In this document: positions 4,526-26,798 of the stretch, one piece after another | How positions within the stretch are numbered: position 1 is the first letter of the stretch | Layout of the letters: the number at the start of each line of letters is the position of its first letter | Assembly: GCA_024404275.1 (NCBI GenBank) | Contig: JAKSQG010000001.1 | Location: forward strand, 3,851-36,839 | Length of the DNA: 32,989 nucleotides | Origin: Clostridia bacterium | Lineage (GTDB): Bacteria > Bacillota > Clostridia > Christensenellales > Aristaeellaceae | Direction: 5' to 3' | The notes under the pieces: model-generated | What the model saw: the letters and a program-made list of their open reading frames with translations, nothing else | What the model was told of the DNA's origin: nothing | Databases searched by the model: none | Program-made: the position numbers and the translations under genes

Positions 4526-6385
4526 TTACTCTTTTACGCCGCCGAGTGCAACACCGCGGATGATGAATTTGCTCAGGCACAGATACACGATGATCACAGG
4601 CAGAATGGACAGTGCGATCATCATATAGGTCATGCCCTGGTCCAGACTGGCGGGATCCTTGCCGCGCAGCGTGGCAATCAGGATCGGCAGGGTCTTCTTG
4701 GTCGGGTCAGAACCGGGAATAACAATGGCGGGAACGAAGTAGTTATTCCAGGAGTTGACAAAACTGAAGATGGCCTGCACGGCAATGGCGGGTTTGGTAA
4801 TGGGCAGCACGATGCGGTTGAAGGTGCCAAACTCGCTGCAGCCGTCAATGCGGGACGCTTCAACGATCGCCATCGGCAGTGCGGAATCCATGTATTGCTT
4901 CATGAAGAAGAATACAGTCGGAGCCGCCATGGCAGGCAGAATCAGCGCAAGATAGGATGTGTACCCTTCCGTCCAGCCAAAGCCGCGGATCAGATCGATG
5001 AAACCGAGGGTGCTGACCTGGGTCGGAATCATCATCACCAACAGGATGAAGCTGAACACAAAGTTCTTGAGCTTAAAGTCATAGGCGTGGATGGCATAAG
5101 CCGTCAGAGCGGAAACGTAGGTCGACAGGCCGGCCACGCTCAGTGAAATGATCAGGCTGTTCAGCATACCGTACCAAACCGGCAGATCCTGCTGCGCCAT
5201 CAGCTTATCCCAGTTGGCCTTGAAGTTGGTACCGGGCAGAAGGCTGATACCGCCGATGATCTCGTTATTGGTGCGGGTGCAGTTGATCATCAGCAGATAG
5301 AAGAAGAACAGGCACAGGAAGGACAGAATGCCAAGGACAGCATAAGCCAGAATGCGGCGAACATGGATGAAGCCCGCCAACAGCGTGATGCCTGTCATGA
5401 CCGCTACGATACTCAGGATCAGACCGACGATGAGAATCGTGGAGACGGTAGATGCACTTGCGGAAACTGCCTCATCCAAAGCAGCAAAGGCTTCAGAATA
5501 GCTTTCCGCTCCGTTCTTGCTTTTGAATGCATCAAGCTCTTCGGCGGCTTTTTTGCCGGATTCAACGGCGGTCACCACGGCAATATCCGCTTTATCCGCT
5601 TGCTTGGCCATCGAGGTATAAGAGGTGGTGATACCGACATCGCAGTCGCTCTTGGTGAAGCCGGCGGCGTTTGCATACACAACCGCGGTAATAAACGCTG
5701 CCAGAGCGGCAACGGCGATGATAATCTGCAGAGCGGCAATGCCCTTTCGTTTTTTCTCATCCGCTTTGCCGACAAAGAACGCCGAGATTCCCAGCAGCAC
5801 AGCCAGCACAGCCGCAACTACTGCCATGATGACCACTTTGCTGCTGCTATCCTGTTTTTCAGCCAGGTTTTCTTCCCCGAACTGTTTGAAGGATACGCTG
5901 CTTTCTTCAATCTTCTTCAGCTTGTTGGTTGCAATGGTCAAAGCACTGTTATCTTTTTTGATCACGCCCGCCAGGTTGCCAAAGGCTGCTTCGGCGTCCT
6001 GATCGTTTTCGAAGAAACCGCGAACTGCCTGCTCCGCTTCTGCAATGGCTGCGGCAAAGCCGTTCTTTTCTTCTTCGGTTGCAGCGGCATCACGATTGGC
6101 ATACAGCTGAAGCAGTGCATTCTCAGCTGCCATTTTGCCGTTATTGAATTCAATCGTAGCCCGATAGGCCGCCGCATCGCTGTCATTGCGCGCATCGCTG
6201 AAGACCGCCAGATTGGTCAGAAAATCGGTGGTTTCTCCCGCAAGGAGGCCCCGGACGCTGATACCGGCCATCACCGCGCAAATGAGCATCAGCACAGCAA
6301 CGACTGCCAGTACGGCACGGCAGGAGCGTACGCGTTTACGTTCTGCCTGTGCGGAGGAGGAAACGACATCTGTAAGTCTGCCCAT
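4526..6385 (-). CDS. CUT1-type sugar ABC transporter permease (MalG-like) with ~335-aa N-terminal extension
   Basis: 619 aa. The C-terminal ~280 aa is a standard permease core with EAA loop EASRIDGCSEFGTFNRIVLPITKP. The N-terminal part is Ala-rich with additional hydrophobic helices. Its ATG shares one base with the upstream TAA (TAATG). Stop TAA. Confidence 0.85.
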   Translation of the reverse strand: MGRLTDVVSSSAQAERKRVRSCRAVLAVVAVLMLICAVMAGISVRGLLAGETTDFLTNLAVFSDARNDSDAAAYRATIEFNNGKMAAENALLQLYANRDAAATEEEKNGFAAAIAEAEQAVRGFFENDQDAEAAFGNLAGVIKKDNSALTIATNKLKKIEESSVSFKQFGEENLAEKQDSSSKVVIMAVVAAVLAVLLGISAFFVGKADEKKRKGIAALQIIIAVAALAAFITAVVYANAAGFTKSDCDVGITTSYTSMAKQADKADIAVVTAVESGKKAAEELDAFKSKNGAESYSEAFAALDEAVSASASTVSTILIVGLILSIVAVMTGITLLAGFIHVRRILAYAVLGILSFLCLFFFYLLMINCTRTNNEIIGGISLLPGTNFKANWDKLMAQQDLPVWYGMLNSLIISLSVAGLSTYVSALTAYAIHAYDFKLKNFVFSFILLVMMIPTQVSTLGFIDLIRGFGWTEGYTSYLALILPAMAAPTVFFFMKQYMDSALPMAIVEASRIDGCSEFGTFNRIVLPITKPAIAVQAIFSFVNSWNNYFVPAIVIPGSDPTKKTLPILIATLRGKDPASLDQGMTYMMIALSILPVIIVYLCLSKFIIRGVALGGVKE

Positions 6386-7347
6386 TATTTGTTTCCTCCT
6401 TTCATGGACGCCAGCTGACGCTGCTTCTGCATTTGACGGGAATCCTTATTGAGATAGTTGAACATGAACATGCTGATGACGGCGGTAATGACAAACAGGA
6501 TCACCGACAGCGCGCCGCCCATGCCGTAGTTCTTGGACTTGCTGATGTAGTTGTTCAGCAGCATGATGAGCGTCATGCTCTCACGGTTGGGGTTGCCAAC
6601 GCCGTTGGTCAGAATCTGCGGAACGTCAAACATCTGCAGACCGCCGATCATTGAGGTGATCAGCATATAGCTGAGAATCGGCTTGATCATCGGCACGGTG
6701 ATGCGCCAGAAGGTATCCCAGGCATTTGCACCGTCGATCTGTGCCGCTTCAAACATGCTGTTGTCAATGCCCATCACACCGGCCATCAGGATGATGGTGG
6801 TATTGCCGAACCACATCATGAAGTTCATGGAGCCAACCAGACCGCGTACCGTTCCGGTATAGCTGAGGAAGCGCACGCTGTCGATACCGACCGAGTTGAG
6901 CACGCTGTTCACCGGTCCGCGATCAGAGAAAAGCGCGAAGAAGAGCATGGCAAACGCCGAGGCCATGATCATGTTCGGCAGATAGATCACCGTTTTGAAA
7001 AAGGCCTGTCCCTTGATTTTGAGGGTCAGATCGGTAAACCACACCGCCAGCAGCATGGAAATCACCAGCTGCGGCACAAAGCCGATCAGCCACATCACGG
7101 CGGTATTGCTGATAAACTTCAGCAGGTCATAGCGAGTGAAGATATCAACAAAGTTCTGGATGCCCACAAAGTTAGGGCCTACTGCCTTCAATCCGCCTTC
7201 GAAATAGTATTCAAAGAAGGAATAATAGAAGGTTTTCACCAGCGGGATGAGCGTGAACACCGCAAATGTTGCAAAGAAGGGAATCAGGAAAATGTATCCC
7301 CATTTTGCATAGCTGACGGATTTTCTCTTTCGGGTTAGTTTCGACAT
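6385..7347 (-). CDS. CUT1-type sugar ABC transporter permease (MalF-like)
   Basis: EAA loop FEAAQIDGANAWDTFWRITVPMIKP and multiple TM helices. The track start is GTG 7359; the ATG at 7347 (MSKLTRKRK...) is better spaced from GAAGGTGG. Stop TAA. Confidence 0.85.
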   Translation of the reverse strand: MSKLTRKRKSVSYAKWGYIFLIPFFATFAVFTLIPLVKTFYYSFFEYYFEGGLKAVGPNFVGIQNFVDIFTRYDLLKFISNTAVMWLIGFVPQLVISMLLAVWFTDLTLKIKGQAFFKTVIYLPNMIMASAFAMLFFALFSDRGPVNSVLNSVGIDSVRFLSYTGTVRGLVGSMNFMMWFGNTTIILMAGVMGIDNSMFEAAQIDGANAWDTFWRITVPMIKPILSYMLITSMIGGLQMFDVPQILTNGVGNPNRESMTLIMLLNNYISKSKNYGMGGALSVILFVITAVISMFMFNYLNKDSRQMQKQRQLASMKGGNK

Positions 7348-7532: not shown

Positions 7533-8786
7533 TCAGAAGGACAGCTCGGGATGCTTTTCGAGCATCACGGTGTAGAAGTTGTTCCAGGCGGTGTCCAGAT
7601 CAACGATACCGTTGAAGTAGTCATGCATGGCGTTCTGGATCTGCTCGGTGCAGGTCTGATCATACATGGTGGACTTGGCGCGGTTGATGTTCTGAGCATT
7701 GGCCAGCAGCACGCTCACGTAGTTCTGGCCGCCCAGGAACGCATCACCGAAAGCGGGATCGTTGGCGAAGCCTTCCATAACGGAAACGCTGTTGGTGAAG
7801 TCGGACTTTTCCTTGACGATGGTGGTCAGAACGTCCTTGTCGATGGTCATGGTCTTGATGATGTCAGCAACCAGAGCTTCGTTATCGGTGCCCTTGGCAG
7901 CGCAGATCCAGGTGCCGCCCCAGGAGAAGCCAACGGGGCCTTCGCAGACAGCCCAGTCACCGGCAGTACCGGCGCCCATGGAGTAGTCGAAGAACCAGGC
8001 GGGTCCGAAGTAGCAGAAGACCTTGGAATCATGAGCCATGTCAGCGGACCAGTCGGGATCCCACAGCTTGGTGCCGTTGTTCCAGCCGTTTTCGGTGAAC
8101 TTTTTGGTCTGGGCGATCCAGGCTTCCACGGCGGCGTCCTTCTGAATCTTGCCGTCGACGACCCAGGAGGTGCTCATGTTGTCGGTGAAGGTACGATAGG
8201 TGTCATCATAACCGGAAACCATCTTGATGCCGGCATCGGCCATCATTTCGGCCACAGCTTCGAAGGACTCCCAGTCGCACAGCATTTCCTGCACAGTCTC
8301 GGGATCATCGGTGCCCAGCACTTCCAGAGCCAGGTCACGGCGATAGATCAGACCGGCGGGGCAAGCCTGCCAGGACAGACCCTTGATCTTGCCTTCGGCG
8401 TCAGTCATGATGTCCAGGGTGTACTGATACATATCGGCGATGTCTTCGGCGGTGATGCCCAGATCGGCGATATCATAAGCCAGATCCATGTACTTCACAG
8501 CGTAGTCGGCTTCCACCAGGAAGATGTCGACCTTCTTGTCGGCGGGAGCAGAATCCTGAGCCTGCAGAGCGGCATCCAGCTTGTTCTGATAGTTGTTCTC
8601 GGCGTTGGGCTCTTCGATCCAGTTGACGGTCACGCCTTCGGGAACGGTGTAGTAATCGGTGAAGCGGGTCTTCCATTCATCGTTCCAAACGAAGATGTTC
8701 AGAACAGTTCCTTCGTCAGCGAAGGCCACAGCGCACAGGCTGAGCATCATCGCAGCGATCAGGAGAGCGGAAATGAGTTTCTTCAT
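7533..8786 (-). CDS. ABC transporter extracellular solute-binding protein (sugar, family 1)
   Basis: 417 aa with signal peptide MKKLISALLIAAMMLSLCAVAFA (possible lipobox LSLC). Sits upstream of the two permeases. RBS AAGGAGG. Stop TGA. Confidence 0.8.
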   Translation of the reverse strand: MKKLISALLIAAMMLSLCAVAFADEGTVLNIFVWNDEWKTRFTDYYTVPEGVTVNWIEEPNAENNYQNKLDAALQAQDSAPADKKVDIFLVEADYAVKYMDLAYDIADLGITAEDIADMYQYTLDIMTDAEGKIKGLSWQACPAGLIYRRDLALEVLGTDDPETVQEMLCDWESFEAVAEMMADAGIKMVSGYDDTYRTFTDNMSTSWVVDGKIQKDAAVEAWIAQTKKFTENGWNNGTKLWDPDWSADMAHDSKVFCYFGPAWFFDYSMGAGTAGDWAVCEGPVGFSWGGTWICAAKGTDNEALVADIIKTMTIDKDVLTTIVKEKSDFTNSVSVMEGFANDPAFGDAFLGGQNYVSVLLANAQNINRAKSTMYDQTCTEQIQNAMHDYFNGIVDLDTAWNNFYTVMLEKHPELSF

Positions 8787-8825
8787 GGTTTTTCCTCCTT
8801 TTATAATTATCCCATTTTCGGGATA

Positions 8826-9836
8826 TTATTCATGATTGGGGGCTGCCAGCGTCTGCCCAGGCAGGTAGCAGCAGGGAACGGTCTCGATCTCGGGGAAGGT
8901 CACTTCCGGGTGTTCCACCAACTCGATCAGTTTTTGGGCTGCCGCTGCACCGATGGCTTCGGTATCCTGACGGATGGTGGTAAGCGCCGGGCGGGTTCGC
9001 TGCAGCAGCGGCACACCGTCGTAACCGACAATGGAGATATCCTACGGAATGCGCAGACCTTTTTCACGTATGGCTTCAATGCCGCCCAGTGCGGCGTAGT
9101 CGTCCGGCATGAGGATGCAGGTGGGCGGTTCGGGAAGCTCCAGCATTTTTCTTACCTGATGACGGGTGCGAGCCGGGTTGTGATACTCGCTTTCGATCAG
9201 ATAACCATCGGGAATGTCCAAACCGGCATCTATCATCGCCTTGCGGTAGCACTTTACGCGGGCTGTGGAGACTGATTTTTCCGCGCCGTGGACATAGCCG
9301 ATCTTTTTGTGACCCATTGCAAGAATGTTCTGCATCAGCAGCTCCATACCCTGACGGTTGTCAGAACGGACGCAGCTGCGTTCCTGAAACAGATAGTCAA
9401 CGGTGACCAGCGGAATCTCGCTGCGTAAAAGCTCCTGTACCTGCGGATCTTCAAAGTGGCAGCATACGATGCATACACCGTCAAATTTCCGGCTCCGGCA
9501 ATGCTCCAGGATGGTACTGCCTGTGCTTGTTCTTTGGGAAATGAAGGTGATGTCATATCCGCGGGCTTCAGCCCCCATGCGGAACGCCTGCAGGATGGGA
9601 GAAAAGTAGCTGTGCGTCAAACCGCTTTCGGAGTCATCCGCATAGAGAACGCCAAGCGTGTAGGTTTTGCCGCTTCTGAGTCCCCGCGCAGCAGCATTGG
9701 GGTTATATCCCAGCTGAGCGGCCTTTTCCTTAACAATCCTGCGGGTCTCTTCATTCACGTCCGAGTAACCATTCAGGGCTTTGCTGACCGTGGATACCGA
9801 TAATCCGCAGGCAGCGGATAGTTCCTTGAGTGTCAT
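8826..9836 (-). CDS. LacI/GalR-family transcriptional regulator containing one in-frame TAG (9042-9044)
   Basis: Track pieces 9042..9893 and 8826..9014 are in the same frame. Direct reading gives ...AIREKGLRIP-TAG-DISIVGYDGVPLLQRTRPALTTIRQD... N-terminal HTH MTLKELSAACGLSVSTVSKALNG starts at ATG 9836. Read-through length is 336 codons, normal for the family. Stop TAA. Confidence 0.85.
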
Positions 9837-10012: not shown

Positions 10013-10079
10013 TTTGAGAAAAGGCACTCTTCGCACCGTGCTTTTCGGTTATTCTTTCTTATCAGGAGGTAAAACCACA

Positions 10080-12503
10080 GTGGAATACGGTCATTTTGAC
10101 GATGCCGCCCGGGAGTATGTCATCACCCGGCCGGATACGCCTTCTCCCTGGATCAACTATCTGGGCAGCGAAGCCTTCTTCACCCTGATGAGCAATACCG
10201 GCGGCGGCTATTCCTTCTATAAAGATGCCCGCATGCTGCGCATCACGCGCTATCGCTATAACAACGTACCGCTTGACGCCGGCGGTCAGTATTTCTACAT
10301 TAACGACCATGGCACCGTCTGGACTCCCGGCTGGATGCCCGTACGCACCCCATTGGACCATTATGAATGCCGTCATGGTCTTGGCTACAGCAGTATCACC
10401 GGCGAGAAGAACGGCCTTTGTGTCAAGGAAACAGCCCTCGTCCCGCGCGGAAAGAATGCCCTGGTCACCCGGGTCGAACTGAAAAACGCTTCTGCTGAAA
10501 GCAAATGCTTCACCCTGACCAGCTTTGTGGAATTCTGTCTGTGGAATGCCCAGGACGATTCCACCAACTTCCAGCGCAATTTTTCTACCGGCGAGGTTGA
10601 AGTGGAAGGCAGCGCCATTTATCATAAGACCGAGTATCGTGAACGCCGCAACCATTATGCAGTGTATGCCGTCAATGCCCCGATCGACAGTTTTGAGACG
10701 GACCGTGACAGTTTCCTCGGCGCATACCGAGGATTCAACGATCCCCGTGCCGTTCTGGAAGGTGCAGAGAACAGCATGGCCAGCGGTTGGGCTCCCGTGG
10801 GCAGCCACCAGCTGAAGGTATCCCTCGCTCCTGGAGAAGAGCGTTCCTTCATCTTTGTGCTGGGCTATTGTGAAAACCCGCAGGAAGAAAAGTTCATCGC
10901 TCCCAATGTGATCAACAAAGCGCCCGCTGATGCGCTGCTCGCCGCTTTCCGTACCGATGATGATTTCGAAGCCGCTCTGGCGGAAATGAAAGCATACTGG
11001 AACGAGCTGCTTTCCATCTATCAGGTGCAGACCGGTGAATCCCGTTTCGATCGCATGGTCGGCATCTGGAATCAGTACCAGTGCATGGTCACCTTCAACA
11101 TGTCCCGTTCCGCCAGCTATTATGAAAGCGGCATCGGTCGAGGCATGGGTTTCCGTGATTCCACGCAAGACCTGCTCGGCTTTGTTCACCTGATTCCCGC
11201 CCGTGCCCGTGAGCGTTTGCTGGACATCGCCGCCACCCAATTCCCCGACGGCAGCGCTTATCACCAGTATCAGCCGCTGACCAAGCGCGGTAACTTTGAC
11301 GTTGGTTCCGGCTTCAACGATGACCCGCTGTGGCTCATCTTCGGCGCGGCTGCGTACATCAAGGAGACCGGCGATCTGTCGATCCTGCACGAATCCGTCC
11401 CCTTCGATAATGACGAATCGCTGGCGCAGCCTTTGATGGAGCATCTTCGCCGTTCTATCCACTATACTCTGGAGCACCTCGGTCCGCACAAGCTGCCGCT
11501 GATCGGCCGTGCGGACTGGAACGACTGCCTCAACCTGAATTGCTTCTCCGCTACGCCCGGTGAAAGCTTCCAGACGACCGCCAACTTTGAAAGCGGCATT
11601 GCCGAAAGCCTCTTTATCGCCGGCATGTTCATCGGTGTCTGTCCCGACTACGAAAAGCTGTGCCGTCTCTATGGCTGGAACGAGGAAGCCGATCAGGTCG
11701 CCGGTTGGAAGAAAGCCATGACCGAAGCCGTTCTGAAAGATGGCTGGGACGGCGAATGGTTCCTGCGTGCCTACGATGCCTACGGCAACAAGATCGGTTC
11801 TGACAGCTGTGAAGAGGGCAAGATCTTCATTGAACCGCAGGGCTTCCTGGTTATGGCCGGCGTTGGCGTTCAGGAAGGCTATGCTGTACGTGCCATGGAT
11901 TCCGTCCGTCATCACCTGCTCGGCGAGCACGGCGTGGCCATCCTGACGCCGCCGTACACACGTTATCATCTGGAACTTGGTGAAATCAGCTCCTATCCCC
12001 CGGGATACAAGGAGAATGGCGGCATTTTCTGCCACAACAACCCCTGGATCGTCATCGGTGAAACGGTGCTGGGCCGCGGCGGCAACGCATATGATGTGTA
12101 TGTACGCACCTGCCCCGCCTTCATCACCGATCAGAAGCTGCACCACACTGAACCGTATGTATACAGCCAGATGGTAGCCGGTCCCTATGCGCCGCGCAGC
12201 GGTCAGGCCAAAAACAGTTGGTTGACCGGTACCGCTGCCTGGACCTTCTACGCCGCCAGCCAGTCCATTCTTGGCATCAAGCCTGACTATGACGGACTGA
12301 TGATTGATCCCTGCCTGCCTGGAAATCTGACGGATGTGTCCATTACCCGCCGTTTCCGTGACAGCGTATATCATGTGCATATTGTCAACAAAGCCGGCAA
12401 CACCAAAGGTCAAATGAGCATGACCATGGACGGCATCGCCGTCAATGGCAATGTGCTGCCTGCCGTTCCCGGAGAGCATCAGGTAGAAGTCATCATGGCC
12501 TGA
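10080..12503 (+). CDS. cbp: GH94 cellobiose phosphorylase (or closely related beta-glucan disaccharide phosphorylase)
   Basis: Motifs typical of characterised cellobiose phosphorylases: [62 protein letters not shown]. The track start TTG 10014 is replaced by GTG 10080, 9 nt after AGGAGG, giving 807 aa. Stop TGA. Confidence 0.9.
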
Positions 12504-12518
12504 AAGGCATAACAAAAC

Positions 12519-14263: not shown

Positions 14264-14291
14264 GGTTTTACAACAAACGGAGGGAAAGAAC

Positions 14292-15035
14292 ATGCTTAAC
14301 AATCAGCTTTGCATTTTTGGCGATTCCATTTATTGCGGTGTCACCTTTGACGAAACCTTTGGACGCTATACCCTTTGCCGCAATACCTTTGATAAGAAAC
14401 TTCGTTCCTTCGGCGTGACCGTCCGCAACAACGCCCGTCCCGGCTGCACCACCGACATCGCGCTGAATCATCTGGATGAAGCGCGTGTACTTCCCGGAGC
14501 TGTTTGCCTCATTTCCTTTGGCGGCAATGATTCTGATCTTGAGTGGGAAAAGGTCGCAGCCGATCCAGACCATTATCACGAGGGAAAAGTCTCCCTGGCG
14601 CAGTTCAAGGAAAACATACGGGAACTGATTCTTTTTGCAAGGGAGAAACAGATGCAGCCGGTCGTGTGCACACCCCTTCCCGTGGCAGCGGAACGCTATT
14701 TTGAAACTTTCTCCAAAGGACTTGACCGCAGTGCCCTGATGCGCTATCTGCATAACACCGAATACATCTATCGTTGGCAGGAGCGTTACGCGCTGGGAGC
14801 ACAGCAGGTTGCCTGCAGCATGAATTGTGAAGTGTTTGACCTGCGCAGTATCTTTCTTTACCAACGGGACTTTTCAGCGCTCATGTGCCGGGACGGCATC
14901 CACCCGAGCGCAGCCGGATATACGCTGATGACGCAAGCCTTCTGCAGTTTCTGGGGAGTCGAAAGCGCATCTGATACACAGTCACAGCGTGTGTTTCATC
15001 CCTTCTTCAACCCCGCATCCGCCTTCTCCTTCTGA
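14292..15035 (+). CDS. SGNH/GDSL-family hydrolase
   Basis: 247 aa with block I FGDSI, block III GGND and block V DGIHP. Stop TGA. Confidence 0.8.
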   Translation: MLNNQLCIFGDSIYCGVTFDETFGRYTLCRNTFDKKLRSFGVTVRNNARPGCTTDIALNHLDEARVLPGAVCLISFGGNDSDLEWEKVAADPDHYHEGKVSLAQFKENIRELILFAREKQMQPVVCTPLPVAAERYFETFSKGLDRSALMRYLHNTEYIYRWQERYALGAQQVACSMNCEVFDLRSIFLYQRDFSALMCRDGIHPSAAGYTLMTQAFCSFWGVESASDTQSQRVFHPFFNPASAFSF

Positions 15036-17806: not shown

Positions 17807-18541
17807 TCACCGGGGCAGATAACTGGCCTCGCCCGGCACAGTCGCCTCAATGGTGCCGCCCTGAAGCCCTCTGGCGCGAAGTTCCATCAGTACAGCCCGC
17901 ACCGTACCCAGCTTGCCCCGAAGGGACTGCGCGTTGCCGATCCGGATGGTATGGCCATCCCGGGTGGTCAATGTCAGGCTTTCTGTGCGGGACGCGTCCA
18001 TTGAGGCAATTTCCGTGACCCAACCCTGCGCCCGAAGCTCTTCCACCACGGCTGTTACGCTGTCAAACTGCCCTTCTTCCATGCAGACAACCCGGGAATG
18101 CTCCCTGATATCACGGATGTTGAGCCCGTTCACATAGATGCAGCCGTTATCCTCATCCAGGACATTGCTGACAGAAAGCACCACGCCGGAGGAGGAGGTG
18201 ACAAACCGCCGTCCCCCACCCCCTTCCTGGATGTTCAAAGCCGGTGTCTGCTCCTGTACATACAGGACGACTGTATCCGGCCAGATCTTTTCCAGGCTTT
18301 GATAGACATAGTGATAATCGCTGTTGATGCCCTTTCGGATGGTGTTCTCATCGACATCAAAATAGCTCATGCCTGTTTTGAGACCGCTGAGGTTATACAC
18401 CTTAAGCAGATTTTCATCACTGACACCGGCCAGCAGCACATGCTGAATGACCGCCACTTTTTCGTGTATGACAAAGGCGGCTGAAAGCAGCAATACTGCC
18501 GCCACAGCCGCGATCATGATGGTTTTCATTCCCTTTCGCAT
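17807..18541 (-). CDS. ftsQ: Cell division protein FtsQ/DivIB (short form)
   Basis: 244 aa with a single N-terminal TM helix followed by a POTRA-like region (VYNLSGLKTGMSYFDVDENTIRKGI...VVLYVQEQTP). dcw synteny. RBS GGAGGG. Stop TGA. Confidence 0.8.
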   Translation of the reverse strand: MRKGMKTIMIAAVAAVLLLSAAFVIHEKVAVIQHVLLAGVSDENLLKVYNLSGLKTGMSYFDVDENTIRKGINSDYHYVYQSLEKIWPDTVVLYVQEQTPALNIQEGGGGRRFVTSSSGVVLSVSNVLDEDNGCIYVNGLNIRDIREHSRVVCMEEGQFDSVTAVVEELRAQGWVTEIASMDASRTESLTLTTRDGHTIRIGNAQSLRGKLGTVRAVLMELRARGLQGGTIEATVPGEASYLPR

Positions 18542-18556
18542 CGGGATCCCTCCGCT

Positions 18557-19933
18557 TTATTCCAGGGCATTGACCAATTGTTTAAAGATTCTGCCGCGCT
18601 GTTCATAATCGCTGAACTGATCAAAGGAAGCACACGCCGGGGATAAAAGCACATTTCCGCCGTTCACCGCCAGCTTTCTGCAGAGCTGCACGGTTTCGGG
18701 ATAATTTTCAGCGTGATAGAGCGCCGTGTATCCCGCCTTGACCAGTGAAGCCTCGATCTGCGGAGCGGTCGCGCCGCACAGCACGATCTTGTCAATCATA
18801 CCGCTCTTCATGATCTCCTCGGACAGCGCGTCGAAGGAAACATGCTTGTCCGATCCGCCGAGAATCAGCACCGTGGGCACGCGCATGGTCTGCACTGCCT
18901 TGATGGTGCTGTCCACATTGGTGCCCTTGCTGTCATTGTACCACTTGACGCCGTCCAGCTCACGCACAAACTCAATGCGATGCTCCACACCCTTGAAGGT
19001 CTTGAGCGCCATACGGATCACCGGTGCCGGTACGCCCGCGGCAAAAGCCATCATGGCCCCCGCCAGCGCGTTCTACAGGTTATGCGGTCCGGGGATATAG
19101 ATTTCTTCCGTTGCACAGATGAGGGTTTCCTCGCTCTTCCAGCGGATGAACATTTTTCCATCATGGACAAAAGCGCCGTTCTCCACTTCGTGCTTGGAAC
19201 TGAACCAGGCAACCTGGGAAGGAATCTTCTCCGCCATCGCGCGGCACCAGCTGTCCTCATAGTTGAGCACCGCCGTATCCTTTTCGGTCTGACGATCAAA
19301 AATGTGCTGCTTCACAGCGGCATAATTGTCCATCGTGTAATGACGGTTCAGATGGTCCTCCGTCACGTTCAGCACAGCCGCCACCGTGGGATGGAAGGTA
19401 TCCGTGGTTTCCAGCTGAAAGCTGGATACCTCCGCCACCAGCACATCCTCCGGCTTGCTCAGCATAGCCGCTGCCGACATCGGATAACCGATGTTGCCGG
19501 CCACATAAGCGATCTTGCCGAAGCCGCGGAAGATCTCCCCCAGCAGCGACACCGTGGTGGTCTTGCCGTTGGTGCCGGTCAGCGCCACCAGCGTTCCCTC
19601 CGCCAGCTGCGAAGCAACCTCGAGCTCGCCGGTCACGGAAATGCCCTTCGCCTTTGCCGCAAGTACAATGGGAGCATCAATGGCGATGCCGGGGCTGATG
19701 AGCAGCACATCGGTCTTGTCCAGCAGTTCTTCCGGCTTCTGACCGAGATACCATTCGCAGGGCAGGGCCTTGAGCGTACGGATGCTCTCCCCCAGCTGTT
19801 CTTCCGTCTTGCGGTCATTCAGCATGGGAACAGCGCCAAAGCGGCACAACAGTTCTGCCACAGCGACACCACTGCGCGCCATGCCGATGATCAGCACCCT
19901 TTTCCCTTGCCAATACTGTTTCAAATCGCTCAT
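18557..19933 (-). CDS. murD: UDP-N-acetylmuramoylalanine--D-glutamate ligase MurD containing one in-frame TAG (19073-19075)
   Basis: Track pieces 19073..19951 and 18557..19054 are in the same frame. Direct reading gives ...EEIYIPGPHNL-TAG-NALAGAMMAFAAGVPAPVIRMALKTFKGVEHRIEF... P-loop GTNGKTTT is present. Start ATG 19933 follows GGAGGATAAG. Read-through gives 458 codons. Stop TAA. Confidence 0.9.
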
Positions 19934-19947
19934 CTTATCCTCCGGAA

Positions 19948-20973
19948 TCAAAACCAGGCCAGCACGCTCAGCACGGCAATAACGCTGAGTACCAGCGTAA
20001 CCGCCGCGTACATCATCACAATCTGATTCTCATTCATGCCGCTCATCTCAAAGTGATGATGGATGGGCGTCATCTTGAAAATGCGCTTGCCATGGGTCAG
20101 CTTGTAGTAGGTTCTTTGCATGATGACAGAAACAGAGCTCATCACGCAGGTAAAGCAGATCAGCAGCAGCAGGAATTCCAACCGCAGCAGCACAGCAATG
20201 CCAACCATGACGCCGCCGATGAACATGCTGCCGGTATCGCCCATAAAAATCTTGGCAGGATGGCGGTTGAATTTGAGGAATCCCAGACACGCGCCCGTCA
20301 GTGCAAAAGCCACAGCGGCACTGCATTCACCCGCGTTGAGCAGGCTGCTTCCCGCGGATGCCATCAGCAAGCCCATTGCACCGAATGCAATCATGCCCAC
20401 CGCGGTCACGCTGGACAGAATGCCGTCAATGCCATCCTGCAGGTTGGCACTATTGGTCATGAACAGCACTGTCAAGGTAAGCAGCGGGATATAGAACACA
20501 CCCAGATTCCAGGTACTGTGGGTAAAGGGCAGAATGACCTCGCTGCCGAGCGTAAAATACGCCCAAACAGAGAACAACAGACCCACGATCAACTGACCCG
20601 CAATCTTTTGCTTCGGCTTCAGTCCCTCGTGATTCTTTTTGACATCCTTGATATAGTCATCGGTAAAGCCCACAGCCATGGAACCGATGGCCACAAACAG
20701 CAGCGCCCACAGGGTATTCTGCAGCGACCAGAAGGGTACCGCAGCACCTTTTTTACGCATGAGGCACACCACCAGTACGGTAATCATCACCGTGACAGGG
20801 CCTGTGACCACACCGCCCATGTTGGGCGTGCCCTTTTTGTTGAGGTGGCTCTGCGGTCCCAGTTCGTACATGGTCTGGCCGAATTTGAGGGCACGCAGTT
20901 TTTTGATACACACCGGCATCAGAAGCATCATCAGCGCAAAGCTCATTACCACGGCTTCAGCGGCATACAACAT
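19948..20973 (-). CDS. mraY: Phospho-N-acetylmuramoyl-pentapeptide transferase MraY
   Basis: 341 aa polytopic membrane protein with motifs GTPNMGG, DDYIKD, NLQDGIDG and PIHHHFE. RBS AAGGAG. Stop TGA. Confidence 0.93.
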   Translation of the reverse strand: MLYAAEAVVMSFALMMLLMPVCIKKLRALKFGQTMYELGPQSHLNKKGTPNMGGVVTGPVTVMITVLVVCLMRKKGAAVPFWSLQNTLWALLFVAIGSMAVGFTDDYIKDVKKNHEGLKPKQKIAGQLIVGLLFSVWAYFTLGSEVILPFTHSTWNLGVFYIPLLTLTVLFMTNSANLQDGIDGILSSVTAVGMIAFGAMGLLMASAGSSLLNAGECSAAVAFALTGACLGFLKFNRHPAKIFMGDTGSMFIGGVMVGIAVLLRLEFLLLLICFTCVMSSVSVIMQRTYYKLTHGKRIFKMTPIHHHFEMSGMNENQIVMMYAAVTLVLSVIAVLSVLAWF

Positions 20974-20985
20974 AACAGCAGCTCC

Positions 20986-22440
20986 TTATTGCTTGATTTC
21001 CTGCAAAAGTTCTTTTACGATCTGCTTTTCGTCAAAGGGATATTTCTTTCCACAGATCTCCTGATAGGTTTCGTGTCCTTTGCCCGCCAGAATGACGATA
21101 TCATTGGGCTGCGCGGTTTCCAGCGCGTGACGTATGGCGGCACGGCGGTTTTCAATCACCGTATATGGCCCCGTCGTCTGCTTGATTCCCTCTTCAATGC
21201 TCTGAAGAATCGCAAAGGGATCCTCACTGCGGGGATTGTCGCTGGTCAGCACACAGTAATCGGCCATTCTGCCGCCGATTTCGCCCATGATGGGGCGTTT
21301 ACCATGGTCGCGGTCACCGCCGCAGCCAAACACAGCAATGACCCGTCCTTTTGCAAACTGACGGACCGCTTTCAGGATATTTTCCAGCGCATCGGGAGAA
21401 TGTGAATAATCAAGCAGCACCTTGTAGGGAGTATCGGTGTCCAGCATCTACGCGCGTCCGGGAACTGCCCTGACCGCCTCCAGACCCGCGGCAATGGCTT
21501 CCAACCCGACGCCAAGTGCGGCCGCGGCCGAAGCCGCGGTCAGCGCGTTATACACATTAAAAATGCCGGTCATGTGCATATGCACATCACACTCACCAAG
21601 CTCGCCCATATGCAAGCAGAAGGCTACACCCTGCTCACTGATCTCAATATCACGCGCATAGCAATCCGCATTTGCGCGGATACCGAAAGTATGATAGGGC
21701 AGCACCGTATCACGGAGAATCTGCGCCGTGGTCTCCTCATCGGCATTCAGCACAGCATTGCGTGCATAAAAAGGCGTGAAGAAGATCTTCTTCGCCTCAA
21801 AATACTGCTCCATGGAACCGAAATAATCCAGATGATCCTGCGACAGATTGGTATAGCAGGCTACATCATACACCACGCCGTCCACACGGTGCATGGCAGT
21901 GGCATGAGCGGAAACCTCCATCACAACAGCATCCACCTGCTCATCCGCCATGCGGCGCAACAGGGACTGCAGCTCATCCGCCTCGGGCGTTGTCATATTG
22001 CCATGAATGGGACGATCGCCGATCATGTTGCCCGTCGTACCGATCAGGCCGCACTTCATACCGGCATGTTCCAGAATGGATTTGATCAGATAACTGGTCG
22101 TCGTTTTGCCCTTGGTGCCGGTGATGCCGACCATTTTCATACTGCGGGACGGATGACCGTACAACGCGGCACAGATGGGACCAAAGGCTTCACGCATATT
22201 TTTTACGCGGATCTGCGGCACATCGAGCGGCAGAAAGCGTTCCACTGCCAACGCCACAGCGCCGTTGGTCACTGCCTGCGCAGCAAAATCATGCGCATCA
22301 AAACGAGCGCCGGAGATACAGCAGAACAAGCCGTTTTCATTCTTCACACGGCTGTCCATCACCGGCAGTTTTACATCGGTATCGCCCTTCCGTTCCAGAA
22401 TCAGGGAACCGCATTCCTTTTCCAGATCGCTGAGTTTCAT
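20986..22440 (-). CDS. murE: UDP-N-acetylmuramoyl-tripeptide synthetase MurE containing one in-frame TAG (21448-21450)
   Basis: Track pieces 21448..22440 and 20986..21447 abut in the same frame: ...LEAVRAVPGRA-TAG-MLDTDTPYKVLLDYSHSPDALENIL... P-loop GITGTKGKTTT is present. Read-through gives 484 codons. Stop TAA. Confidence 0.92.
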
Positions 22441-22474
22441 GTCGGACCTCTTTCCGTCTGTTTGCGCACAAGCA

Positions 22475-22510
22475 GGCTGATGAATCTGCCTTATCTCGTG
22501 TTCATCAGCC
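22475..22510 (-). other. Stem-loop in the murE leader
   Basis: GGCTGATGAA (22475-22484) / TTCATCAGCC (22501-22510), a 10-bp perfect stem with a 16-nt loop, about 35 nt upstream of the murE ATG. Confidence 0.4.
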
Positions 22511-22521
22511 GCTTGATTCAG

Positions 22522-22556
22522 AAAAAAACAGCCGACCGGTGCCTTGCAGGCACCGG
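22522..22556 (-). terminator. Intrinsic terminator after the ftsL-like gene
   Basis: CCGGTGCC/GGCACCGG (22536-22556) followed on the minus strand by TCGGCTGTTTTTTT. Confidence 0.7.
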
Positions 22557-22571
22557 AAGGCGCATCAATGA

Positions 22572-23069
22572 TTACTTTGAAGCCTGCATGCTGGCGCCGT
22601 TCAGTGTGGTGCCGGGCCGTGTCGCAGGAGCATAGATATAATTGACTTCCATGGCATCCGCCTTGGTCATACCAAGATTCACAGCAAGCTTATCGATCAC
22701 ATTTTCCGCCGTTGCGTCGGCAATCTGCTGCTTCATGCCGTTGATCTGCCTCTACGCCGATTCTACCTCGGCATACAATGTACGGCCATCCTGAAGCAGA
22801 TGACCCTTTTTTTGCACCGCCCCGGCATAGAACATCAGCATTACCACTGCCAGCAGTCCTGCCGCAATCAAAAGCAGACGCAGCGGAACACGCCGTGCCT
22901 CGGCGGGACGGTTGGGCGCGACATAGGTGCTGCGCTCATCCATATCGCAGCACACATCGCCGCCCGGCATATAGACGTTTGAGCGTATGGTCATTTTTCT
23001 GCGGTCGGCGTTCCAGTAGCCTGCCTTTGTGTATGTATGCGTGCTGCCGGCCAGAGACATATGAATCAT
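22572..23069 (-). CDS. ftsL: FtsL/DivIC-like septum formation protein containing one in-frame TAG (22752-22754)
   Basis: Track ORF 22752..23069 ends at TAG. The same frame continues for 59 codons to TAA 22572-22574: ...TLYAEVESA-TAG-RQINGMKQQIADATAENVIDKLAVNLGMTKADAMEVNYIYAP... One TM helix (LRLLLIAAGLLAVVMLMFYAG), a coiled coil and the ...LGM... tail typical of FtsL. Start could be ATG 23069 or 23060. Confidence 0.7.
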
Positions 23070-23084
23070 ACCCTTTCTTTATTA

Positions 23085-23603
23085 TTATCTGGCGGCGATC
23101 TCCGCCTCAAAACTCAAAATATCGGGAGTTTCTTCCAGGATCTTTTCTTCTTCAAGGTCGGCTTCTTCCTGCTTCTTGATGCAGATATGAGAGCCGCAGC
23201 CCGATACATCAACGTCCCGGGCATCCTGCAAAAAGCGGGTGCGCAGTTTCTGCGGCAGCAGGATACGTCCCTGACCGTCGCACTCACAATCCTCGTAGGT
23301 ATACTTTGTAAAAAGATTGATGATTTTGATCATCCGCATATCCTTCTCCGCCAGCTCCAGCAGAGAGCAGTAGTACAGCTCCCATTCGCGGCGGGGATAT
23401 ACGGCAATGGCCTTGAAATCAGGCGTCATGCAGATGCAGAAGGAATCTCCCAAAGCATTTCTGAAAGGCGCGGGAACAATTAATCTTCCCTTTGCATCCA
23501 ATCCGTGCTGGTAGTCGCCGCGGAAGCCGCCACGCAGCAGATGGGCGTATTTCTGCAGAAGAGCATTCTGCCGCTCGCCCAGCTGTTCCAGCTTTTCGCT
23601 CAC
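23085..23603 (-). CDS. mraZ: Transcriptional regulator MraZ (with ~30-aa N-terminal extension)
   Basis: GDYQHGLDAKGRLIVPAPFR and the second half-repeat CDGQGRILLPQKLR. The nearest start upstream of the first motif is GTG 23603 after AAAGGTGGTGG (alternative GTG 23636). Ends with a triple TAA. Confidence 0.8.
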   Translation of the reverse strand: MSEKLEQLGERQNALLQKYAHLLRGGFRGDYQHGLDAKGRLIVPAPFRNALGDSFCICMTPDFKAIAVYPRREWELYYCSLLELAEKDMRMIKIINLFTKYTYEDCECDGQGRILLPQKLRTRFLQDARDVDVSGCGSHICIKKQEEADLEEEKILEETPDILSFEAEIAAR

Positions 23604-23664
23604 ACGCCCACCACCTTTCCGGTTTAAATCCACCACTTGGCTCTACTTTTTGGGATTTGCAACC

Positions 23665-24040: not shown

Positions 24041-24760
24041 TCAAATCTGGTTCTGTTCCCCACTTTCGGGTTCATCGATTCTCTTCAGCCTGAATCCAAG
24101 GGCGTCGCAAGACACCAGATGATAGCGAACCCCGCCTTGCACGCCGCTGAAGCCCGTGCGGATGGACGCGCCATGAAGGTGTCCATACACGCAATCGCGC
24201 ACACCATAACTGCTCAGCAGTTCGGAGACCTCTGTCGCTTCTCCATTTTCCGCCACCGGCGGATAATGAGTCATGGCTACCAGCGGTGCATCGGCATCCA
24301 GCGATCTGGCTTTGTCCAGCGACATTTTGAGCCGCATCAGTTCGCGCCGGTAGAGCCGCACATTTTCGACGTCCTTCTCACTGGACGGAAGCGTCCAGCC
24401 GCGGGAGCCGCAGAACAGCACGCCATTCAGTCTGACAGCGTCATTCTGTACCACGACCATCCCCGGTCCGACAATCTACCGTACCCTTGTCAGCGAACTC
24501 CACCAGTAGTCATGGTTGCCGCGAAGCATCACTTTCGTGCCGGGCAGCTCTGCAATCTCTTCCAGATCGTTCCGGGCATGCTCAAGCTGCATCGCCCAGC
24601 TGATATCGCCGGGAATCAGCACAACATCTTCTCCGGTCACTCGTTCGCGCCAGTCTGTGCGGATCTTGTCCCAGTGCCCTTCCCAGTGGGAACCGAACAC
24701 ATCCATCGGTTTATCGTCTCCCCCGGGGAGATGCAAGTCGCCAATGGCATAGATACTCAT
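24041..24760 (-). CDS. Metallophosphoesterase (calcineurin-like) containing one in-frame TAG (24476-24478)
   Basis: Track pieces 24476..24760 and 24041..24460 are in the same frame: ...GNHDYWWSSLTRVR-TAG-IVGPGMVVVQNDAVRLNGVLFCGSRGW... Motifs GDLHL, GDISW, GNHDYW and GHLH span both pieces. Read-through gives 239 codons. Stop TGA. Confidence 0.85.
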
Positions 24761-25372: not shown

Positions 25373-25423
25373 CTGCTGTCAGTTGTTTTTCAAAAAGGCA
25401 ATGATACGCTCTGCGATCGCTTC

Positions 25424-26125
25424 TCAGGCACCCGTATGCACGGTACAGGCATGCGGATAATCCTGCAATTCCATGTATTCTGCCTTCACCTGCTTGGCGC
25501 CGTTCATGATGATGCCGGCACTCTCCTGACGAATGGTACGATCCCCTGTGCTCTGTATCACCAGCAGCGGACAGCAGATCTTTTTCAGTCCGGAACGCGC
25601 CATCATCATCAGATGATGCAGGTCGCCCGAACTCTTGGTGGGAAAAGTCCGATAGCCCATGGCATAATCCTTCATCAGGGTAGGGGCTGCGGGACCATGC
25701 GACCTGAAAGAGACCGTCGGTTTGATAATCGCCAGTACCTTGGCTACGCTCATCCCCGGTGTATGCACTTTCATCGGTGCGGAGATGGCCACGCAGCTGT
25801 CCGCCCCCATGCGCTCTGCCGCCAGCAGGGACAATACGCCGCCCATGGAAAGGCCGGCTGCCGTCACGGTAGCGTATTCCTTTTTCAGCTTCTCCATGGC
25901 TTCTTTTTCCTGCCGCAGCCAGTCCCGCCAATTGGCCTTGAGCATATCCTCCATCACGGTGCCATGACCCTTGAGACGAATGCCCATCACTGTATATCCT
26001 GCCTCATTGAGCAGGCGTGCCAGCGGAAGCACGGAAGCCGGCGTGGAAGTGAAGCCATGCGTCAGCAGAATGGCATGATCGCCGCCCGGCAGAAAGAACG
26101 GCTGCGTCAGTTCTTCATTTTTCAT
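25424..26125 (-). CDS. Alpha/beta-hydrolase carboxylesterase (Est-like); possibly extends to 25379 through an in-frame TGA
   Basis: HGFTSTP, nucleophile elbow GLSMGG and a C-terminal catalytic His region YPHACT. Start ATG 26125 (MKNEELTQPFFLPGG). Ends at TGA 25424-25426, but the same frame continues as EAIAERIIAFLKNN to TGA 25379-25381. Confidence 0.8.
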   Translation of the reverse strand: MKNEELTQPFFLPGGDHAILLTHGFTSTPASVLPLARLLNEAGYTVMGIRLKGHGTVMEDMLKANWRDWLRQEKEAMEKLKKEYATVTAAGLSMGGVLSLLAAERMGADSCVAISAPMKVHTPGMSVAKVLAIIKPTVSFRSHGPAAPTLMKDYAMGYRTFPTKSSGDLHHLMMMARSGLKKICCPLLVIQSTGDRTIRQESAGIIMNGAKQVKAEYMELQDYPHACTVHTGA

Positions 26126-26138
26126 GTGGTTTTTCCTC

Positions 26139-26798
26139 TCATTCCATGTCGCCGAGGTCCTCAGTCGCTTCCTCATTGCCAATCAGCAAAAGAACATCCC
26201 CGGGCTCCAGCTCGGTGTCGGCATTGATATCGGAAATCACGCGGTCCCCCCGGCGGATGGTCAGCAGTGTAACGCCGTAGCGCCGGCGGATGTTGATGGA
26301 GCCGATGCTCTTATGGCTCCACCCCGCAGGAACGCTTCGCTGCACCAACCGCAGGTCGCGGCCCAGTTCCCCCATATCCACAACATTCGGCCGCACCAGT
26401 TTGTTGGCAAGGCGCACCGCCATATCCCGCTCGGCATAGACCACACGATCCACCCCCAGCTTTTCCATCACTCTGGCATGCAATGCATCATTCACTTTGG
26501 CGATGACCATCGGCACACCGGCTTCCTTGCACTGCATGGCAATGAGCACAGAATCGCGGATGTTCTCGCCAATGGCAATGATCGCGACGTCAAACTGCTG
26601 CACCTCCAGCCGACGGAAAGAAGCTTCCTCGGTAGCATCCGCGCAGACAGCATTGGTCACAAAATCGCTGATCTCTTCCACGCTTTCCATGCGGCTGTCC
26701 ACCGCCAGCACTTCCTGATCCTGCTCTGCCAGTTCCCTGGCCAGCGAAGAACCGAAGCGGCCCAGACCGAAAACCACAAACTGCTTTTTGTTTTTCAT
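26139..26798 (-). CDS. trkA: Trk/Ktr potassium uptake system NAD-binding (RCK) subunit
   Basis: FVVFGLGRFGSSLARELAEQDQEVLAVD Rossmann motif plus a C-terminal RCK_C region. Start ATG 26798. Stop TGA. Confidence 0.88.
   Translation of the reverse strand: MKNKKQFVVFGLGRFGSSLARELAEQDQEVLAVDSRMESVEEISDFVTNAVCADATEEASFRRLEVQQFDVAIIAIGENIRDSVLIAMQCKEAGVPMVIAKVNDALHARVMEKLGVDRVVYAERDMAVRLANKLVRPNVVDMGELGRDLRLVQRSVPAGWSHKSIGSINIRRRYGVTLLTIRRGDRVISDINADTELEPGDVLLLIGNEEATEDLGDME

Follow-up and report, generated by a model that had tools for sequence, protein, structure and literature searches.

How can an essential cell-wall enzyme be produced from a gene with an in-frame TAG codon? This question is raised by murE in a stretch of 32,989 nucleotides (hereafter the window) of an uncultured gut Clostridia bacterium (assembly GCA_024404275.1, contig JAKSQG010000001.1). 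By comparing the window with other assemblies of the same clade and with more distant relatives, we conclude that UAG is very probably translated in this clade. The reading that best accounts for the available sequences is a genome-wide reassignment of UAG to glutamate in a small clade of gut Clostridia, to which we assign a probability of roughly 0.7. The clade as considered here is comprised of the window genome, the strains assembled in ERZ27247129 and SRR27361835, and the sister species SGB_3710 (GCA_045599485.1).

The in-frame TAG of murE

The gene and the codon in question are located as follows.

20986..22440, minus strand: murE, UDP-MurNAc-L-Ala-D-Glu:meso-diaminopimelate (meso-DAP) ligase, 484 codons with one TAG read through
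21448-21450, minus strand (CTA on the plus strand): TAG at codon 331 of murE, in the Glu slot of the GR-x-E motif, context GCG TAG ATG

The frame opens with ATG at position 22440 and runs for 330 codons to ...AVPGRA, where it meets the TAG; the following 153 codons (MLDTDTPYKVLLDYSHSPDALENIL ... EIKQ) are closed by TAA at 20986-20988. The local reading is ...AVPGRA-TAG-MLDTDTPYKVLLDYSHSPDAL, or AVPGRA-TAG-MLDT in short form. With X placed at the TAG, the product of 484 amino acids is matched by Pfam profiles as a single protein, with Mur_ligase_M at residues 106-305 (E 7e-51) and Mur_ligase_C at residues 328-455 (E 1e-32). Its assignment as MurE is supported by both Mur domains, the GxxGKT P-loop (GITGTKGKTT), the DNPR motif of meso-DAP-adding MurE (TSDNPRSEDP), the location in the division and cell wall (dcw) gene cluster, and best PDB matches that are MurE structures; the DYSHSPDAL motif is also present.

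The sequence-only reading of this locus had placed the TAG in the Glu slot of GR-x-E and had described the 153-residue C-terminal domain as open and conserved in frame, and both observations are borne out by the frame, the alignments and the profile matches. MurE proteins of relatives at 72-79% identity carry GRAEMLDTDTPYKVLLDYSHSPD, which is the window context with E replacing the TAG. Glu occupies the column in all 85 motif-parsed proteins among the 120 closest database proteins, and in 39 of 53 MurE loci from species-representative genomes, with Gln in another 11. Among solved MurE chains, Glu is found in those of T. maritima (4bub) and M. tuberculosis (2wtz) and in the E. coli-type 7b6o, and Gln in 7d27; a plastid MurE-like protein also has Glu. 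The column is thus conserved, with Glu as the main residue and Gln as a minority.

Three further assemblies carry the same locus within the clade.

L186: ENA ERZ27247129, 98.1% nucleotide identity to the window
L054: Logan SRR27361835, 95.9% nucleotide identity to the window
L001: metagenome-assembled genome SGB_3710, GCA_045599485.1 (sister species), 90.9% nucleotide identity to the window

Codon 331 of murE is TAG in all three, GAG in the relatives L055, L002 and L003, and GAA in L056. The ratio of non-synonymous to synonymous substitution rates (dN/dS, Nei-Gojobori method) in murE is 0.048 upstream and 0.045 downstream of the TAG in comparison with L054, and 0.037 and 0.033, respectively, in comparison with L001. 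The neutral divergence after the TAG that would have spoken for a truncated gene is therefore not seen. In murD, a second TAG-bearing gene of the window, the corresponding values against L054 are 0.015 and 0.012 (the L001 sequence does not extend past the TAG), and in an ftsL-like gene dN/dS after the TAG is 0.04-0.16. With purifying selection as strong after the TAG as before it, the sequence downstream is translated and functional.

These values bear directly on the possibility that the genes are decaying and their TAGs represent nonsense mutations or sequencing errors, or that the genes have been split to encode two polypeptides. Such an explanation agrees with the annotation of two open reading frames (ORFs) by the Prokaryotic Genome Annotation Pipeline (PGAP) and other gene callers, which split the TAG-bearing genes in every assembly, and the ATG directly after the murE TAG (GTG in L001) could in principle restart translation. 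The Met encoded by this ATG is, however, ancestral, as relatives have GRAEM. None of the five TAGs found in the window is followed by a Shine-Dalgarno (SD) sequence, although the real genes of the window usually have one of the GGAGG type, and four of the five also lack a start codon. On this evidence restart, and with it the split-gene reading, was ruled out. Decay was ruled out by the equality of dN/dS across the TAG, with no relaxation of selection, and by the shared lesions, which are not private to one strain: identical TAGs recur in four independent assemblies, which also rules out sequencing error. Moreover, the in-frame stops of these genes are always TAG and never TAA. Taken together, lesions, errors or split genes are a very improbable account of these codons.

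As deposited, murE is represented by MCQ2452978.1 (ligase) and MCQ2452977.1 ("hypothetical protein"), following PGAP annotation with translation table 11. Table 11 annotation fragments the TAG-bearing genes in general, and the fragments make their own clusters in protein databases; the cluster of the 330-residue MurE fragment has six members originating from NCBI, ENA and Logan. A metagenome scan with a degenerate pattern for the murE TAG site returned a single match (L182), which was rejected as a chance hit in an unrelated high-GC contig.

TAG codons in other genes and genomes

The window is an ordinary bacterial chromosome segment (GC content 54%) that contains mraZ, ftsL, murE, mraY, murD, ftsQ, ftsA, ftsZ, efp, dapF, argS, trkAH, a sugar ABC transporter, and genes of the GH1 and GH94 families. 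A scan for single-stop gaps, together with an ORF scan in which only TAA and TGA were treated as stops, identified five in-frame TAGs, all in minus-strand genes. In addition to murE, the following genes and codons are involved.

18557..19933, minus strand: murD, one TAG read through, SD ggagg before the ATG at 19933
19073-19075, minus strand: TAG in murD, motif PGPHNL-TAG-NALAGA
24041..24760, minus strand: calcineurin-like metallophosphoesterase gene, one TAG read through
24476-24478, minus strand: TAG in the metallophosphoesterase gene, WWSSLTRVR-TAG-IVGPG
22572..23069, minus strand: gene for an ftsL-like small membrane protein, between mraZ and murE, one TAG read through
22752-22754, minus strand: TAG in the ftsL-like gene, YAEVESA-TAG-RQINGMK
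8826..9836, minus strand: LacI-family regulator gene (lacI), one TAG read through
9042-9044, minus strand: TAG in lacI, GLRIP-TAG-DISIVGYDG

For the TAG-bearing genes of the window, full-length coverage of the Pfam profiles requires reading through the TAG. The murD codon falls at residue 287, within the central domain (domain match at 119-295), which also argues against a split gene; the closest relatives have PGPHNLENA there, encoded with GAA or GAG. Among 46 Mur-ligase matches in the collected loci, some of which are low-identity and probably paralogues, 17 have Glu in this column and none has Gln. The Metallophos profile is covered at 1-190 of 191 positions only with read-through. Its TAG codon is shared by the window, L054 and L186, and is GAG in L001, L056 and L002 and GAT in L003, so that TAG in the window species stands against GAG in the sister species, with GAG also in outgroups. 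In the LacI-family regulator, the helix-turn-helix and the Peripla_BP_3/Peripla_BP_1 profiles span the TAG, and a Logan fragment with 96% identity to this protein (P0121) ends exactly at ...GLRIP; the corresponding column in 119 orthologues has Gln in 55 and Glu in 52, with Glu in the three closest. The ftsL-like product is poorly conserved and matched no Pfam family; its TAG is present in L001, L054 and L186, and is replaced by CAG in L055 and AAG in L056. The codon is thus found in frame in many conserved genes that remain under selection after it. Because murD, the ftsL-like gene and three other genes bear the same kind of TAG, a second copy of murE is not needed as an explanation, and the scale of the phenomenon exceeds that of the sequence-only reading: it is a property of the genetic code of the organism rather than of MurE.

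The same sites were traced through the clade. TAGs of murE and the ftsL-like gene are present in L186, L054 and L001, and those of murD and the phosphoesterase gene in L186 and L054, so that four of the five window sites recur in the latter two assemblies (lacI lies outside the reach of their contigs). These TAGs are common to assemblies at 98%, 96% and 91% identity and absent from the outgroups, and their inheritance spans at least 9% of DNA divergence. The shared sites and the TAG/GAG difference in the phosphoesterase gene indicate that TAGs persist over a synonymous divergence of about 0.5 and still arise from GAG. A 45-kb contig of the sister species, found by a homology search with ArgS, contributed a further locus (L187) with 10 kb beyond the window. 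It contains an MgsA/RarA gene (5735-7030) with three in-frame TAGs at 6026, 6452 and 6881 and a second metallophosphoesterase gene with one at 8758, with conserved sequence after each. The number of known TAG sites in the clade is thereby 10, in eight genes.

One of these sites is doubtful as evidence either way. In L186, the gene for an alpha/beta hydrolase (window 25424-26182, minus strand) has a private TAG at 864-866, where the window has CAG. In the window, the same gene has the sole in-frame TGA seen in these genes, and may therefore be decaying. This TGA (25424-25426) replaces a Cys codon that is TGC in L186 and conserved as Cys in relatives, and 14 conserved codons (EAIAERIIAFLKNN) separate it from the real stop at 25379-25381; it represents a nonsense mutation specific to this strain or else an error. 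The different lesions in the two strains favor gene decay here, and the pseudogene explanation may apply to this gene only.

At the opposite end of the genes, TAG is missing. The 29 genes of the window, as counted after removal of antisense artefacts, end with TGA (16) or TAA (13) and never with TAG; in L187, TAG ends none of 19 genes; and about 40 distinct genes examined in the clade all terminate with TAA or TGA. As a sense codon TAG is also rare: of 9,853 sense-position codons in the window, 5 are TAG, 286 GAG and 353 GAA (639 for the last two). Among standard-code relatives, L056, L183 and L184 (72-73% MurE identity) and Ca. Limiplasma (L003) use TAG as a terminator in 1/22, 1/11, 1/22 and 3/8 genes, respectively, and no in-frame TAG was seen in these four. 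Because relatives at 72-73% terminate some genes with TAG, the change appears to be confined to a small, genus-sized clade. TAG terminators make up about 5% in standard-code relatives (3/55 genes), and L002 has none in nine genes. The TAG-poor termination of L056, L183, L184 and L002 is a possible pre-adaptation to losing the UAG stop.

An alternative in which UAG is ambiguous has to be considered at this point: release factor 1 (RF1) would be kept, some genes would still end at UAG, and a natural suppressor tRNA would read selected TAGs efficiently. The rarity of TAG as a sense codon would agree with this, as would its context, since G precedes the codon at 9 of the 10 sites (P about 7e-4) and a purine follows at all 10 (A at six, G at four; P about 0.02), both P values being calculated against the context of Glu codons. 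In E. coli genetics, amber suppression works best before a purine. Such a bias could also be the outcome of mutational context or of selection that favors efficient decoding, perhaps against residual termination. Against ambiguity stand the lack of a single TAG terminator in the roughly 40 clade genes, the need for read-through in three essential cell-wall and division genes, and the three TAGs of one gene (MgsA/RarA), where the loss of yield under partial suppression would be multiplicative. We consider ambiguous decoding unlikely.

Several gene models and features of gene order were noted in the course of this analysis. ORFs at 10062-12515 and 14268-14864 (both minus strand) were rejected as antisense artefacts and replaced, on the basis of Pfam matches and of synonymous and non-synonymous counts, with a GH94 gene (10014-12503, plus strand) and a GDSL lipase gene (14292-15035, plus strand). 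The ORF at 7551-9275 (plus strand), antisense to lacI and to a gene at 7533-8786 whose putative assignment to a sugar-binding protein is based on position only, was likewise discarded; all three ORFs are composition artefacts. One of them had 8 non-synonymous differences between strains and not a single synonymous one. The dcw cluster of the TAG clade (window 17807-23636) is without the penicillin-binding protein gene ftsI, ftsW and murA, unlike that of relatives at 72% identity (L056 6669-20041, and L184), where these genes are placed between ftsL and murE and after murD. In the relative at 79% identity (L055), ftsL is directly followed by murE, as in the TAG clade.

The probable amino acid at UAG

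The meaning of the codon was assessed from the residues that relatives have at each of the 10 sites.

murE: Glu
murD: Glu, never Gln
phosphoesterase: Glu/Glu/Glu/Asp, with TAG/GAG alternation
lacI: 55 Gln and 52 Glu, the three closest Glu
ftsL: Gln/Lys, in proteins only 25-40% identical
hydrolase (L186): Gln in the conspecific window, Ala in relatives
mgsA site 1: Gln/Glu
mgsA site 2: Glu/Thr
mgsA site 3: Gly/Gly/Asn (LG-x-G column)
second phosphoesterase: Glu/Arg

Glu is thus found in relatives at seven of the 10 sites, a small sample in which TAG nonetheless aligns preferentially with one amino acid. BLOSUM62 log-odds summed over the 10 sites, a crude measure, reach 13.5 bits for Glu, 9.0 for Gln, 3.6 for Asp and 3.2 for Lys, with at most 3.6 for any other residue; under a flat prior the posterior is about 0.95 for Glu and about 0.04 for Gln. 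Allowing for the small sample and for a prior that favors Gln, it appears highly likely from these alignments that UAG stands for Glu, provided that it has one meaning.

The prior refers to the most serious competitor among amino acids, namely a genome-wide UAG codon for Gln, read by tRNA-Gln(CUA) as in amber-recoded gut phages or in supE-type suppression. Elsewhere, reassigned UAG most often means Gln; this residue also occurs in relatives at four of the 10 sites (lacI, ftsL, mgsA site 1 and hydrolase) and fills the murE column in 11 of 53 distant MurE loci; in addition, the sole change seen within a species is from CAG to TAG. However, all close relatives have Glu (GAG or GAA) in the columns of murE, murD and phosphoesterase, and Gln is never seen in that of murD. 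Three Glu-to-Gln replacements exactly at the TAG sites are unlikely because dN/dS of these proteins is 0.01-0.09. TAG also alternates with GAG at one site, Gln falls 4.5 bits below Glu, and the locus is a bacterial chromosome rather than a phage genome with code 15. A Gln codon is therefore improbable.

Pyrrolysine deserves mention because some archaea were recently described to use UAG for it throughout the genome, the sole reassignment of this codon on that scale to have been reported from prokaryotic cells. Pyl genes are also known in some Clostridia. The TAG sites of the present clade, however, align with conserved columns of the acidic residue Glu and show alternation with GAG, Lys lies 10 bits below Glu, and neither pyl genes nor methylamine methyltransferase were seen in the sequence examined. 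A genome-wide pyrrolysine codon is the most improbable of the alternatives.

Proposed mechanism and comparison with known systems

Bacteria that have reassigned UGA have gained a tRNA whose anticodon matches the codon and have lost the corresponding release factor (PMC13462651). By analogy, UAG in the Clostridia clade would be read as Glu by a dedicated tRNA with anticodon CUA, and RF1 (prfA) would be lost or disabled, leaving RF2 to serve UAA and UGA in a mirror image of the RF2 loss in those bacteria. We regard this combination of Glu, a dedicated tRNA and RF1 loss as likely. The tRNA(CUA) could plausibly have originated by duplication of tRNA-Glu and mutation of the anticodon in one copy. 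In most Clostridia, glutaminyl-tRNA synthetase (GlnRS) is absent, and the non-discriminating glutamyl-tRNA synthetase (GluRS) in use is already tolerant of variation at anticodon position 36. Charging could thus be provided by a GluRS that already accepts the anticodons of tRNA-Glu and tRNA-Gln. Owing to the absence of GlnRS and the non-discriminating GluRS in most Clostridia, mischarging of such a tRNA(CUA) with Gln would not be expected, nor would GatCAB amidate a tRNA-Glu body. The TAG-poor background fits codon capture, a route that may have started from the low usage of TAG stops (about 5%) in relatives.

Several observations weigh against this interpretation. The proposed reassignment is derived from DNA comparison. 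No tRNA genes were found by scans of the window, L001, L054, L186 and L187, an Rfam scan of the window gave no match, and a search for the GGQ[HN]VN motif revealed no release-factor genes in the collected loci of the clade and its relatives. TAG is rare and context-biased as a sense codon, which could mean inefficient decoding or competition with termination. That TAG terminators are lacking in the clade is weak evidence alone, because the relatives are already TAG-poor; such a lack would be expected by chance in about one case in seven. Finally, three sites do not point to Glu: ftsL (Gln/Lys), mgsA site 3 (Gly/Gly/Asn), and the TAG specific to L186 that corresponds to CAG (Gln) in the window.

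A search of IMG/VR with a tRNA-Glu-type anticodon-arm pattern carrying CUA gave four matches, of which one is a tRNA(CUA) according to ARAGORN, a second resembles a tRNA on visual inspection, and the remaining two are not tRNAs; no match is Glu-like or connected with this clade. A control pattern with TTC gave at least 120 tRNA-Glu-like matches, so the pattern works. In phage contigs L060 (803-875, minus strand) and L058 (about 700-775), the anticodon arm of the tRNA(CUA) (CCCTCTAACGG) resembles that of tRNA-Glu, the remainder does not, and both appear to be unrelated to the clade.

According to the authors of Codetta, all known stop reassignments in bacteria involve UGA (eLife 2021, PMC8629427). 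Papers from 2026 list UGA-to-Trp and UGA-to-Gly in bacteria and UAG-to-pyrrolysine in archaea (Microb Genom 2026, PMC13462651; gTranslate preprint 2026), and a change of bacterial UAG to a canonical amino acid was not reported in any of the literature we searched. The genus-sized clade of uncultured gut Clostridia, in which the change would be recent, is probably the first bacterial lineage with UAG reassigned genome-wide to a canonical amino acid, Glu. If true, this would extend the list of bacterial genetic codes, with RF1 and not RF2 as the dispensable factor, and would provide a natural counterpart of engineered RF1-free E. coli and a possible source of an evolved tRNA(CUA)/GluRS pair. Being young and having TAG-poor standard-code relatives, such a reassignment would also be a testbed for the codon-capture and ambiguous-intermediate models. 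Gene calling with table 11 splits essential genes in this clade, which is an annotation problem, and such lineages escape coding-density heuristics. A further question concerns the interplay between this code and amber-recoded phages, which are common in the same habitat.

Among known systems, UGA reassignment in bacteria (codes 4 and 25: Mycoplasmatales, Hodgkinia, Gracilibacteria/Absconditabacteria and some Eggerthellaceae) is likewise a whole-genome, clade-restricted change from stop to sense, with in-frame stops at conserved positions and stop usage already skewed in standard-code relatives. There, UGA has become Trp or Gly and RF2 has been lost, whereas here the codon is UAG, its proposed meaning is Glu, RF1 is expected to be dispensable, and the genome is not AT-rich (54% GC). 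The UAG-to-Gln reassignment known in gut phages (code 15; crAss-like and Lak phages) shares the codon, the animal-gut habitat and the expected device, a tRNA(CUA); phage genes for such tRNAs were seen in IMG/VR. It concerns, however, phage genomes whose hosts use the standard code, in contrast to the chromosomal housekeeping genes (mraZ-ftsL-murE-mraY-murD-ftsQAZ, argS, efp) and the probable Glu of the present case.

UAR-to-Glu in peritrich ciliates (code 30) and in Blastocrithidia nonstop (PMC12153298) gives UAG the same meaning, but it occurs in nuclear genomes with eRF1 and includes UAA, which remains a normal terminator here (13/29 genes). The archaeal UAG-to-pyrrolysine change (Kivenson et al. 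2025, as presented in a paper citing it) likewise involves the genome-wide loss of UAG as a prokaryotic terminator, and is similarly hard to detect, as coding density under table 11 barely shifts. It employs a 22nd amino acid and dedicated pyl genes, whereas the residues aligned with TAG here are canonical and acidic. The reassignment proposed for the Clostridia clade would therefore work like the known systems while matching none of them in the combination of codon, amino acid and host.

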